This document shows, piece after piece, positions 4,098 through 63,977 of a stretch of DNA of 64,000 bases. The notes beneath the pieces were generated by a model. The model did not search any database. It saw only the letters and a list, made by a program, of their open reading frames with translations, and was not told the origin of the DNA. Each line of letters starts with the position of its first letter. Within the stretch, counting starts at the first letter, position 1. Location: positions 16,926,001-16,990,000 of the forward strand of contig OZ024763.1 in the NCBI GenBank assembly GCA_964016885.1, written 5' to 3'. The position numbers and the translations under genes were made by a program. The DNA is from Eledone cirrhosa. Lineage: Eukaryota.

Positions 4098-4250
4098 ATA
4101 AAATATTTAAAAAATAATGAATAAAACAATGAAACAGTGCCTTCTATTAAACAAAAAAAGTTCATTATTTAACGATCGTTTCTAGGACATATATGTGTTA
4201 GAATTGGCATGCATATTCAAAAGATCTATGTACAAAATTATACAAAATTA
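4098..4250 (-). mobile_element. Truncated copy of the HHR element family seen at 16501 and 30594 (3' half of the ribozyme only)
   Basis: Near-identical to 30594-30750; contains the reverse complement of GAAACGATCGTTAAATAATGAA but lacks CTGAAGA. Confidence 0.8.
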
Positions 4251-5090
4251 TATGTGTATATATATATATGTGTGTATATATATATATATATATATAAATG
4301 AAATATGTATATATATATATATAAAAATTATAAAAAAATTATTAAAAAATATACTGTCCTACATACATACACATATACTGTAAAATATATGTGTATATAT
4401 ATATGTGTATATATATATATATATATATATATATATATATATAAATGAAATATGTATGTATATATATATATATAAAAATTATAAAAAAATTATAAAAAAT
4501 ATACTGTCATACATACATACACATATACTGTAAAATATATGTGTGTGTATATATATATATATAAATGAAATATGTATGTATATATATATATATATAAAAA
4601 TTATAAAAAAATTATAAAAAATATACTGTCATACATACATACACATATACTGTAAAATATATATGTGTGTGTATATATATATATATATATATAAATGAAA
4701 TATGTATGTATATATATATATATATATATATATATATAAAAATTATAAAAAAATTATAAAAAATATACTGTCATTTCTATAATATGTAGAGGGTGTTTAA
4801 CTCCAACACACTCTAGTAATTTAATTCTTATATATATATATATATATTTATATATATATATATATATATATGTGTGTGTGTGTGTATATATATGCATACA
4901 AACATATACTGTAAAATATATATGTATATATATATATATATATATATATATATATATATATATATATACACATACATACTGTACATATATATACATATAT
5001 ATATACACATACATACTGTACATATATATACATACATGCTGTACACATATATATATATATATATTTATAATTATACTGTATATATATATG

Positions 5091-5189
5091 CAGGGTGTCC
5101 CAAGAAATGTATACACACTAATTACCTGTATAGGCAATATTTATTAGAATGCTGTTGAAGTGTGTATACATTTTTTGGGGGACACTCTG
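5091..5189. mobile_element. Tc1/mariner-like MITE
   Basis: Terminal inverted repeats CAGGGTGTCCC...GGGACACTCTG in TA context, with an internal GTATACAC inverted repeat. Confidence 0.7.
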
Positions 5190-5581
5190 TATATAAATAA
5201 ATAAATATATATATATATGTATATATATATACATATATATAATTGTTTCTACATTTGGCACAAGGCCACCAAATATACTAGTGTATTACTGGTACTATAT
5301 ATAATATACATTTACATTTATATCATGTACTCGCATAATATACATTTATTCGTGCAAATGTTTTTTACACCACACACACACATATATATGTGTATGTGTG
5401 TGTGTGTATATCATATGTATATGGTAAAAAAATGACATATAGATACAAAAACAATTAGTGTTATATATAGGATTCACACACACACACACACACACATATA
5501 TATATATATATATATATATATATATATATATATATATATATATATATATATATATATATATATATATATATATATATATAT

Positions 5582-5756
5582 ATAAGATCGAAAGATGGTT
5601 AAAAGAGTTCCAAGTATTTTATTAATAAAATACTTGGAACTCTTTTAACCATCTTTCGATCTTATATTATTTATACTCCAGTCCTACAAACTGTAGAGTG
5701 CTTCTTATCCGATATTTGCATTGTTTTATTGTGCTACAATAAAACTCACCTCCTAC
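5582..5756 (+). mobile_element. Fold-back 3' fragment of the HHR element family at 19879/20231
   Basis: Perfect palindrome ~5582-5666 centred on TATTTTAT-TA-ATAAAATA, then the family tail with GAGTGCT; flanked by (TA)n. Confidence 0.85.
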
Positions 5757-59489: not shown

Positions 59490-59935
59490 TTTTTTGCCCA
59501 CTTACTCCTAAGAAGATTATGGGGTCAGAGTTCTCAAATACCCCTTCCAGTGGGTCATGTAAGAAGCACCCATCTCCTACTGATCTGACTGGATTCCCAA
59601 GCGAGGCCAGCCAAGCTCTTGGATGTTATCCAACCAACTTGCTCAGAGCCTACCCTTGGGTCTCTTACCTTTTGATTTTGCCCATACAATCTGTGCAGCG
59701 ATTCTTCCCTGAGACATTCCAACCACATGTCTGTAGTATCAGAGCTCTGATCTCTCAATTTGGATAAGTAGTGGCTCTACCTTGATCTCCGAGCTACTCA
59801 CTTTATTGAGTATCATTACTCCAAAGACTCTTTGGAGGAATCCTATTTCAGCTTCTTGTATTTGGGATCGCATTATTTTGGTCAGTACACAAAATTCTTC
59901 ACCATAGATAAGGGTTGGCACAAATATCAAAAGGT
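59490..59935 (-). mobile_element. Degraded RTE-type LINE ORF2 3' fragment
   Basis: IFVPTLIYGEEFCVLTKIMRSQIQEAEIGFLQRV...VEPLLIQIERSEL. Confidence 0.8.
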
Positions 59936-62712
59936 GACCCTAGTTTTTTTTTTTTTTTTTTTTTTTTTTTTTCTAAGGGATTTTTTTTCCCCCACTGTTG
60001 GATTGACAATGGACCTTAGTGCAATGTTGGAGCTGAAATAGGGTCAGCTCATAATGTGGGGTCCTCCTTCAAAGTTTTTTCGATGGTAAGGGCCCCCTAA
60101 AGCTCTTAATCAGGGCCTGGATGAAGAGACCAGTGGGTGTTGATGAGAAGATTGAGATAATTATATGAAACTAGTAGAGTTGTCCTCGGCTTTCACTTGC
60201 AGGAAGAGAGGTGGGTGAGGGGAAGTGATAGAGAGAGAGGTGGAAAGATGGGGAGGTAGGGAGAGGGAGAGAATGAGGGCTCTGTGATTTAGCAAGTCTA
60301 TCTAAACAACGGGGGTTAAAAGTGTGTTTATCAAACAGAGATTTGAAATTATTCCCAATCTATCTGTCTGTCAAATTTGTCTGTCTCTATGTATGTCACC
60401 CTCCCCCCCTCTCTCCCCTTCTCTCTCTCCCCTTCTCTCTCTCTCTCCCCCTCTCTCTCTCTCCCTCTCCCCCCCTCTCTATCCCCCTCTCTCTCTTTCT
60501 CTCTCCCCCTCTCTCTCTCCCCCTCTCTCTCTTTCTCTCTCCCCCTCTCTCTCTCCCCCTCTCTCTCTTTCTCTCTCTCCCCCTCTCTCTCGTTCTCTCC
60601 CCCATCCCTCTCTCTCTCTTTCTCCCCACCATCCCCCTCTCTCTCTTTATCTCACCCCCATCCCCCTCTCTCTCTTTATCTCACCCCCATCCCCCTCTCT
60701 CTCTCAGCATATATATATATATATATATATATAAATCAATACTCATACACACACATATGTGTGTATATCATCCAAAAATGGATGGTGAACAATGATGATA
60801 TATATATATATATATATATATATATATATATATACATTCACACAACATCTAAATGTGTATATATATATTTATGTGTGTATGTTTAAATTATATATATATA
60901 TATATATATATATATAGAGAGAGAGAGAGAGAGAGAGAGAGAGAGAGAGAGATAAATAGATATATAGAGATGAATATGTATATATGCACACATACACACA
61001 TACACCACACACACATACATCACACATACATACACCATACATACACATACACCACACATATACACACGCACCACACATACACACATACACCACACACACA
61101 ACACACTCAACACCCACACCACAAAGACACACACACACACCAAACAAACACACACACACCACAAAGACACACACACACCCCACCAAACACACACACACCC
61201 CACCAAACACACACACACACACCACACTCAAACATACCACACCACACCTTATACACACCCCACCAAACACCACACTCAAACATACCACACCACACAGACA
61301 AACACACACACACCACACTCAAACACACCACACAAACACCATATACACACCACAAAGACACACACACACACACACACCATATACACATACACCACACCAC
61401 AAAAACACATCACACCACACACACACACCAGACAGACACACACACCACACCACACACACACGCCACACCATACACACACACCACACCACAAAGACACACA
61501 CACAGGACACCACAAAGACACACACACACCACACCACACAAAGACACACACACCACAAAGACACACACACCACACCACACACACCACAGCACACCACACA
61601 CTCCACACCACACCATACACACACATCACACCACAAAGAGACACACACACCACACCAGAAAGACACACACACCACCATACACACACACCACACCATACAC
61701 ACACCACACCACACCATACACACACTCCACACCACACCATACACACACATCACACCACAAAGAGACACACACACACCACACCACAAAGACCCACACACCA
61801 CACCACACCATACACACACACCACACCATAAACACACATCACACCACAAAGAGACACACACACCACACCAGAAAGACACACACACCACACCATACACACA
61901 CATCACACCACAAAGAGACACACACACCACACCAGAAAGACACACACACCACCACACACACACACCACACCATACACACACACACCACACCACAAAGACA
62001 CACACCACACCACACCACACACACACCACACCACACACACACTCCACACCATACACACACACACCACACACACCACAACACACACACCAGACCATACACA
62101 CACCACCATACACACACACCACACCACACACACACCACACCACCATACACACACACACACCACACCACACACACCACAACACACACACCACACACAAAAC
62201 AGTATGTAGGTAGTATTTCAAATATCGATTGTTGAAAACTGGAATATGTCCACACAAGGTAATTTGATGGCTGCTATCGTCAATTTTACTGATTGGCATA
62301 GCTTTTTATGTTGAGTTTTTTTTTATTTAACTTATATTTAACTATATATGTGTATGTGTGTGTATATATATATATATATATATATATATATATGTGTGTG
62401 TGTGTGTGTGTATTTATGTATGTATGTATACTCGTATATATATATATATATATATATATATATATATATATATATATATATATATACACATGTATATATA
62501 TATAATATATATATGTGTGTGTATATGTATGTATATATATGTATATATATATATGTGTGTGTGTGGGTTTATGTATACTCGTATATATATATATATATAT
62601 ATATATATATATATATACACATGTATATATATATATATATATGTGTGTGTATATGTATCTATATATATATATATGTGTGTGTGTGTGTGTGTGTGTGTAT
62701 ATATATATATAT

Positions 62713-63700
62713 ATTTATTAAAATAACAGATTAAAGTTTAAGCAAAGAATCGCTGCTTTCACCCTTAACGGGATCTTCTGAAACTAACAAAGTCAATCTG
62801 TGAACGCAGAAGTGAATATTTCGAAAAACGTTGCAACCAAAGGAAGACAGGAAGACGATACTTTGGTTCGTGGAAACGTTCCCTGGCAAAGAACGGGAAA
62901 AAACGAAGATAATACGTCATTATTTGGAGCAGTGAAAAACAATTACACGCAAAGACAAAACCACATTTATGGTATAAAAGAAGTCGTAGACTAATATTCT
63001 ATTAGGTGATTCATAGAGACGTTCTCTGGCATTGAACGGAAAAAACGAAAATAATACGTCATATGTGGTGCGTGGAGAACAATTGCATGCAACGACAAAA
63101 CCACGTAAATGGTATAACTGAAGTCGTAGACTAAAATACAGAGGTAACTGAAATTAAATAAATACAGAATCATTCGGTTTCCTAGTTGGAATTTTAGTCT
63201 ACGACTTCAGTTATACCATTTACGGGTTTTGTCTTTGCGTGCAATTTTTCTCTACGCTCCACATATGACGTATTATCTTTGTTTTTTCCGTTCAATGCCA
63301 GAGAACATCTCTATGAACCACCTAATAGAATATCAGTCTACGACTTCTTTAATACCATAAACGTGGTTTTGTCTTTGATTGTAATTCTTTTTCACTGCTC
63401 CAAATAATGACGTATTATATTCGTTTTTCCCCTTCTTTGCCAGGGAACATTTCCACGAACCAAAGTATCGTCTTCGTGTCTTCCTCCGGTTGTAACATTT
63501 TTTGAAATATTCACTTCTGCATTCACAGATTGACTTTGTTAGTTTCAGAAGATCCCGTTAAGGGTGAAAGCAGCGATTCTTTGCTTGAACTTTAATCTGT
63601 TATTTTAATAAATATTTGCTCTACGGTTCTTATATATTTGATATATATTTATCCTTATCGAGCCCTCTTTGGATTTAGTCTTCAAATTTATTATTATTAC
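62713..63700. mobile_element. Long fold-back element (~430 bp arms) with U4A hammerhead-like motifs (62735-62785 minus, 63541-63591 plus)
   Basis: AGTTT-CAGAAGA-TCCCGTTAAGGGT-GAAA-GCAGCGATTCTTTGC-TT-RAACT; tail homologous to 41815-41935 (-). Confidence 0.75.
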
Positions 63701-63926
63701 TATATATATATATATATATATATATATATGTGTGTGTATGGATGGATACATGGATATATATATACACACATATATGGATGGATAAATATATATGTATATA
63801 TATATATATATATATATATATATATATATATATATTTATCGTCCATCTTCCACACAAGCAATATATATATGTATGTATATGTACATATATATGTGTGTAT
63901 ATTTAGAAATCATCAGGAATCTCATC

Positions 63927-63977
63927 AGATTCCTGATGATTTCTAAAGAATGAAACAGTTCTAGTCCTGTAGAATCT
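63927..63977 (+). ncRNA. Type I hammerhead ribozyme motif
   Basis: AGATTC-CTGATGA-TTTCTAAAGAAT-GAAA-CAGTTCTAGTCCTG-TA-GAATCT; truncated relatives at 13125 and 44888. Confidence 0.85.

Follow-up and report, generated by a model that had tools for sequence, protein, structure and literature searches.

Most of the islands that carry hammerhead ribozymes (HHRs) in a 64,000-nucleotide (nt) stretch of the Eledone cirrhosa genome are very probably the 5'-truncated 3' ends of coding Penelope-like elements (PLEs), mainly of the Hydra clade, lodged in (TA)n. A minority, families D and J, are units without an open reading frame (ORF) that are probably copied by the enzymes of these elements. The stretch, called the window here, is C24:16926001-16990000 (contig OZ024763.1) of the 3.0-Gb genome. 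Elsewhere in the genome, nine of its 12 HHR families continue into a Penelope-like frame for a reverse transcriptase (RT) and a GIY-YIG endonuclease (EN). These families account for 22 of 28 motifs, or 20 of 28 without the untraced subfamily B2. Because these 22 motifs end ORF-bearing PLEs, they are best read as truncation products of autonomous elements and not as non-autonomous families. The initial annotation had taken the islands for a radiation of non-autonomous, retrozyme-type ribozyme retroelements mobilised in trans. That account is improbable for the islands as a whole, and it holds for family D and probably J (3/28 motifs).

Hammerhead motifs and their fold

A family-anchored census of the window found 28 type I HHR motifs with the 5' core and the 3' GAAA in order, between 11777 and 63933. 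One has TAAA in place of GAAA. This number, which combines scan matches with family members having variant cores or a broken helix I, is close to the roughly 29 first proposed, and the 12 families (A-K and Q, with S counted inside E) bear out the estimate of at least ten. About 20 more fragments keep only the HHR 3' half or the tail. The four sites singled out for cleavage assays, at 19887 (A), 35074 (H), 45316 (D) and 63933 (G), are all real. Flanking by (TA)n also stands: a (TA)5 run lies 40-508 nt downstream of the core in 28/28 motifs and within 200 nt in 22/28.

The window has a GC content of 34.5% and 315 runs of (TA)6 or longer, and chance motifs in such AT-rich, hairpin-prone DNA had to be considered. 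A strict structure scan returned 14 perfect-core matches, compared with means of 0.125 and 0.075 (maximum 1) in two sets of 40 local dinucleotide shuffles and none in the reversed window. A relaxed scan, in which helix II could be bulged at its base and helix III could be longer, gave 18 rows that represent 17 motifs, the extra row being a second pairing within the 17767 motif; the corresponding mean was 0.17, with a maximum of 2 in 30 shuffles. Chance is favoured by the weak one-mismatch class, whose 8 window matches overlap the shuffle range (mean 2.4, maximum 5). It is also favoured by the Rfam scan, which was rejected as a source of HHRs: the 150 matches listed of 356 are TA-hairpin microRNA artefacts and contain no hammerhead. 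However, the perfect-core excess, the hundreds of near-identical copies elsewhere in the genome and the covariation described below leave chance with a negligible probability.

In an alignment of 20 diverse A, B and C motifs from fetched loci, the core is nearly invariant and 94.5% of paired cells hold standard pairs. With the structure set by hand, helix II shows two-sided changes at 8/9 pairs, and its covariation score was reached in 0/500 shuffles. The conserved fold first described for the divergent families stands. On this sequence evidence, the window motifs are genuine type I hammerheads, with a CUGANGA...GAAA...NUH core, three helices and covariation. They are of the PLE and retrozyme kind, as first suggested, but the tiny palindromic stem III assumed for all of them is not universal: families G, H and K have helices III of 4-5 bp with 8-9 nt loops.

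The published sources cited here and below are drawn on in part, and each comparison refers to those parts. The palindromic helix III and the U3-A8 variant core of family H resemble the minimal hammerheads of PMC4209133. The full helix III of G, H and K, the very long helix II of family I and a fixed U4A core in family K differ from them. In family I (16511-16650), the helix II region is unusually long, with about 115 nt between the two halves of the core, and it is conserved in young copies. In family K (62780 and 63546), the CAGAAGA (U4A) core is accompanied by a CUU cleavage triplet in all core-bearing copies seen, and its ribozyme activity appears doubtful from the sequence.

Coding families linked to the islands

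Extending the islands 5' in search of RT and GIY-YIG frames had been proposed at the outset, and nine families reach one, which argues against the non-autonomous reading. Seven are of the Hydra clade (A, B, C, G, H, I and K), one is Nematis-like (F) and one Neptune-like (Q). The window, in which no RT or GIY-YIG ORF had been noticed, does hold a Hydra ORF remnant of 150 nt, which is frameshifted and lies at 20787-20940 on the minus strand (E 7e-10).

Family A (core 19887) gives the fullest picture. At least 40 copies exist, and 40/40 scored hits are 97-100% identical. Most of 20 loci studied are short and flanked by TA; their 5' ends vary, and they have inverted arms. A long upstream region common to 4/20 loci leads into an RT and GIY-YIG frame, which lies either in the inverted arm or on the same strand as the HHR, and uninterrupted frames of 808-809 residues occur in 3/4 stretches fetched. 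One locus (L105) reads, in order, 3' untranslated region (UTR) copy, HHR, tail, 5'UTR, ORF, 3'UTR, HHR, tail and (TA)n. Since the tail there is followed by the 5'UTR and ORF, it doubles as the start of the element. The full-length order is pseudo-long terminal repeat (pLTR), HHR, 87-nt tail, 5'UTR, RT, GIY-YIG, 1-kb 3'UTR, HHR, tail and (TA)n. A genome search with the family A EN protein gave 61,161 first-look candidates, which span all Hydra-like families and are not a copy number; 150/150 of those scored are 93-100% identical.

The eight other families were linked to frames as follows. In family B, the EN lies 1140 nt upstream at L049, and an inverted RT abuts the UTR at L029. Family C reaches its frame at 2054 nt at L313, whose UTR is 93% shared with L312, and at L139 its tail continues into the start codon. 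Family F is linked at three places (206-215 nt), G at L253, where HHR, tail and ORF start are contiguous, and H by an EN 724-1212 nt upstream. Family I has 830-residue frames and a 3.1-kb UTR that is 97% shared among three places. Family K is linked at L108 (933 nt) and Q at L318 by one decayed copy. A side observation concerns L182 (C4:290956500-290966499), where two inverted family I elements with open 830-residue frames are identical over the 330 residues compared; by its sequence this pair would be a very young insertion.

Pfam found no domain in a 576-aa piece of the family A protein, and assignment therefore used motifs. Section 11 of PMC8557442 defines the Hydra clade by the RW, DKT, CxCx5C, CxxC and CxH motifs, with canonical HHRs and (TA)n insertion in almost all families. 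Here, a single ORF encodes an RT followed by a C-terminal GIY-YIG EN (808-830-residue frames with YRDD, then Y.C...YIG/YFG). All five Hydra motifs occur in A and I, and all but RW in the 5'-cut K. The RW motif takes the forms RLRWI, RVRWR and RVRWC, and the third residue of RWK is not K. As far as frames were recovered, SDKT, with DKT replacing DKG, is present in A, I, K, H, C and G. The CxCx5C linker, with CxxC and CxH around the E and N residues, one Cys between GIY and YIG and no CCHH, is present in A, K, I and H, and B has been scored for the linker only. The proteins of A, I, K, H, C, G and B are 35-55% mutually identical over long alignments. These features point to Hydra-clade PLEs for A, I and K, and partly for B, C, G and H. 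From EN-side fragments compared by eye with the alignments of PMC8557442, family F resembles Nematis, with a Cx4CxxC linker and a CCHH-type EN, and Q resembles Neptune, with LTYHP, PP..F.R..NL, CxxC and a CCHH-type EN.

Short copies far outnumber long ones, which favours a radiation of non-autonomous elements: 16/20 family A loci are without the long same-strand upstream region, and short copies could in part have been re-copied from their own transcripts. Families E and S may also belong to such a radiation. Against this, nine families run into RT and EN frames, and the 5' ends vary from copy to copy and are often inverted, matching the truncated PLEs of PMC8557442 section 6 and PMC4209133. 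As the main account it is refuted for A, C, F, H and I by multiple ORF-linked loci.

Several points weigh against truncated coding PLEs as the source of most islands. The ORF links of B, K and Q come from one or two loci each, the family Q frame is decayed, and neither B2 nor S was traced to any ORF. Family E was not linked to an ORF in 25 loci and three extensions, its upstream sequence dissolving into TG/TA repeats. Clades were assigned by motif and by eye against the alignments of PMC8557442, in place of a tree including references. The sequences in the covariation test are related and their structure was imposed, and by itself the RNAalifold consensus failed to give helices I and III. For D, no autonomous partner was found and the tail hairpin seen in the Hydra families is missing, and the circular junction of J, from tail to upstream sequence, occurs in one insertion only (L192/L193).

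Non-coding families and insertion ends

Family D (cores 14802 and 45316) is present in the window as an HHR at 14726-14912 on the plus strand and a two-armed insertion at 45071-45639, whose core lies on the minus strand. In the genome, 39/40 scored hits of its upstream query start at nearly the same base, and in 20 loci this base is preceded by D's own tail, an inverted arm, TA or flanking DNA. The element's own tail precedes 23/31 unit starts. Same-strand HHR pairs 352-450 nt apart occur at six places, giving a head-to-tail unit of about 440 nt with a longest open frame of 83 codons. By its sequence, family D falls within the definition of a non-LTR retrozyme (PMC7229834; bioRxiv 10.64898/2026.07.22.740005). 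Like the metazoan examples in PMC7229834, it is a non-coding, head-to-tail unit of this size with one type I HHR. Unlike long retrozyme arrays, D, as known here from its DNA, mostly occurs in (TA)n as a single unit or up to two, and its ends are two-armed and of PLE type. An EN near D at L131 was rejected as a link and belongs to a neighbour, with a TA run and an inverted arm between them.

Family J ends at 18622-18782 on the plus strand (core 18681), with an inverted tail on its 5' side. At least 1.4 kb of common upstream sequence is without an ORF, and the unit measures about 1.9 kb, exceeding the 51-972 bp range of bioRxiv 10.64898/2026.07.22.740005. No tandem with two HHRs was seen in the loci examined. 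J is probably an ORF-less, circularly permuted unit, judging from its junction. An EN at L078 was again a neighbour, belonging to family A.

Family E and its relative S account for 3/28 motifs. E forms a Hydra-like two-armed insertion at 17680-17994, with cores at 17767 (-) and 17845 (+), and a variant S HHR lies at 46213-46362 on the minus strand (core 46302). The helix III and tail hairpin of E look Hydra-like, and its helix III, ACCA-N-TGGT, is the one listed for Hydra-1_Obim in PMC8557442. A candidate ORF link at L255 was rejected as a nested insertion inside a G element. A further locus, L227 (C3:280000001-280010000), holds five identical perfect-core HHRs of a family absent from the window within 10 kb, a possible tandem retrozyme array.

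Copies of family A stop at one of two fixed points, 87 nt from each other: immediately after the HHR or where the tail finishes. Family D shows the same ends. The short A ends are directly flanked by TA in 34/36 cases and the tailed ends in 17/24, compared with a background of 8.4%. Of the other seven tailed ends, TA follows a few bases away in four, CA takes its place in one, and two continue into the ORF. The tail lies on one arm only in 16/17 same-family two-armed insertions of the window, D and J included; this set leaves out 14726, 63893 and the mixed insertion at 32538.

The tails of A, B, C, G, H and J contain a bulged hairpin with the outer stem ACTC...GAGT (for example, 35205-35235), and those of E and K have GCTC...GAGC (17931-17960). 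The pattern was not found in I, D, F and Q. Counts over the eight families are 18/66, 13/40, 7/27, 14/38, 4/31, 29/68, 1/25 and 4/19, with tailless copies in the denominators, and minimum-energy folds contain the stem in 4/8 examples. By eye, the GCTC/GAGC form also stands at the end of the coral Hydra element that precedes Hydra-1_Obim in the PMC8557442 supplement. An RCTC...GAGY bulged hairpin would be kept from coral to the present genome with a swap of A-U to G-C, and the tail hairpin is a candidate cis-signal on these comparisons.

A mechanism can be proposed for these ends. The element's GIY-YIG endonuclease would nick (TA)n, and the RT would prime on AU-rich sites of the RNA at the two end points, one per target strand. 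The RT would usually drop off after 100-300 nt, yielding HHR-bearing stubs. The 3'UTRs themselves hold TA/TG runs, and at L255 insertions of H and E are nested in them; such repeats would take further insertions, which would explain the nests in the window. Copies with an intact HHR plus downstream sequence, some longer than one unit, imply that the template was either an uncut read-through RNA or an HHR-cut, religated circle. A circle is somewhat favoured for family D, and for the autonomous families the chances of circle and read-through RNA are about equal. It is a tentative and rather doubtful proposal that RNA circles closed by the hammerhead are the template for Hydra PLEs and for the non-coding passengers, with RT-EN priming twice on (TA)n at two fixed AU-rich sites that bracket the RCTC...GAGY hairpin, which would serve as the loading signal.

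The window, its host intron and known elements

Family A contributes ends at 19750-19994 (+, core 19887, inverted tail on the 5' side) and 20128-20345 (+, core 20239), and a two-armed fragment without a core at 5569-5757. Family B forms two-armed insertions at 36385-36651 (core 36484, -) and 46666-47004 (core 46898, +), and B2 HHRs lie at 11749-11894 (+, core 11777) and 39604-39768 (+, core 39649). Family C has an HHR at 13385-13524 (-, core 13466) and a two-armed insertion at 35713-36026 (core 35920, +), with a C2 two-armed insertion at 47040-47256 (core 47162, +). Family G appears as a two-armed insertion at 56161-56396 (cores 56309, -, and 56316, +) and an HHR at 63893-63986 (+, core 63933).

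Family H is represented by a 3'UTR end with its tail at 34279-35263 (+, U3-A8 core 35074, stable helix III), by two two-armed fragments at 31739-32067 that keep the 3' core only, and by three more at 33588-34239 with (TA)n between them. Family I has a 3' fragment at 4098-4252 (-, 3' core only), a 3'UTR end with its tail at 15725-16850 (+, core 16511, 116-nt helix II region) and a two-armed insertion at 30457-31021 (cores 30800, -, and 30815, +) whose arm junction breaks helix I. The family K two-armed insertion at 62711-63705 bears its cores at 62780 (-) and 63546 (+). Outside the Hydra clade, family F ends lie at 37404-37693 (-, core 37627) and 47865-48156 (-, core 48090), and a family Q end with a mutated core (51129) at 51092-51246 (+).

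At 32538-32960, a family B arm (core 32745, -) is fused to an opposed family A arm (+) with no TA spacer and a tail on one arm only. This junction could have arisen when the template was switched from one PLE RNA to a different one, or when one element inserted into the other. Other TA-anchored repeated islands, some palindromic, lie at 39860-40270, 42987-43230, 45685-46158, 14380-14520 with 17228-17352, 32378-32525 with 47348-47477, and 37165-37347. No HHR was found in the pieces examined near 39860, 42987, 45685, 14380/17230, 32400/47400 and 37200, and these islands may be ends of other PLE families, e.g., Naiad. Among the PLE stubs, 18008-18601, 18974-19704, 20345-20746 and 43500-43951 are what we take to be 3' ends of RTE-like long interspersed nuclear elements and repeats resembling short interspersed nuclear elements.

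The window opens on a forkhead exon carrying the domain's first half (3012-4025, +; donor GT at 4026), presumably of a FoxJ2/3-like gene. The second half is absent from the window and the next 70 kb. A matching exon with a clean acceptor begins at C24:17456896, about 527 kb downstream. The HHRs would thus sit in a predicted 527-kb intron splitting the forkhead domain (4026 to C24:17456895), and the claim that all lie in one intron is supported at the level of DNA. It is highly unlikely that they are host-selected regulators of the forkhead pre-mRNA. Seventeen of the 28 lie in the sense of the predicted intron, but this does not differ significantly from the 11 on the minus strand (p = 0.34), fragments and broken helices I are common among the copies, and HHRs per kb of (TA)n equal those of the genome sample (1.9 versus 1.8). 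The lack of a sense/antisense difference is in line with the weak monomer cleavage reported for PLE HHRs in PMC4209133 and is no test of it.

The genome sample comprised forty 10-kb stretches placed at round coordinates and not at random; the four largest chromosomes supplied 20 of them and other chromosomes the remaining 20. It contained 35 strict and 42 relaxed HHR matches. The window exceeds it 2.5-fold in HHRs and 2.4-fold in (TA)n (11.5% versus 4.8%). A local hotspot was rejected, since HHR density tracks TA content (rho 0.40, p 0.01) and 80 kb of adjoining DNA holds 11 strict matches. The HHR density of the window is typical of TA-rich DNA in this genome and is not intron-specific. Extrapolation gives 2.6-3.1 x 10^5 HHRs genome-wide (bootstrap 1.7-4.7 x 10^5).

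The kinds of element described here are already known, and the observation is largely explained by known biology. As in the Hydra clade of PMC8557442, a single ORF with a C-terminal GIY-YIG is combined with an HHR near the 3' end, (TA)n, a pLTR, an inverted 5'-truncated arm and a tail at one end; the one-sided tail is described there. That work gives one cephalopod Hydra family, Hydra-1_Obim of Octopus bimaculoides in its supplement, whereas a single genome here holds at least seven families with 35-55% identity. The present elements are longer than its '<3 kb' (3'UTRs of 0.7-3.1 kb), have tails of 50-150 nt versus 30-40 nt and, unlike its Hydra elements, include young copies with intact frames. 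PMC4209133 credits masses of single HHRs to truncated PLEs and reports opposite-strand pairs 100-700 bp apart. Penelope-like families have been counted in octopus repeats, with 31 recently active in O. vulgaris (PMC13282606); in PMC8967140, also on octopus repeats, the words 'ribozyme' and 'hydra' are absent. No publication on cephalopod hammerheads beyond PMC8557442 was found in a search outside subscription papers, Repbase and Dfam, and no printed account was found of family D, of the tail hairpin or of a Hydra radiation as large and diverse as this one.

The function of HHRs in EN+ PLEs is termed unclear in PMC8557442. In bioRxiv 10.64898/2026.07.22.740005 (Li et al. 2026), 1/9 dimers was active and a PLE-derived origin of non-LTR retrozymes is proposed. 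With an extrapolated 1.7-4.7 x 10^5 HHRs, this genome would surpass the far larger one of the axolotl, for which a heading of PMC7229834 gives 'up to 120 000', with descriptors that differ. Young intact autonomous families, a young non-coding family D with the same ends, and predicted ribozymes of monomer type (G, H) and dimer type (A-D, I, J) together make the circle-template model testable. If the circle reading is true, the present genome, whose hammerheads would number about 300,000 and come from many young families, would be the place to show it.

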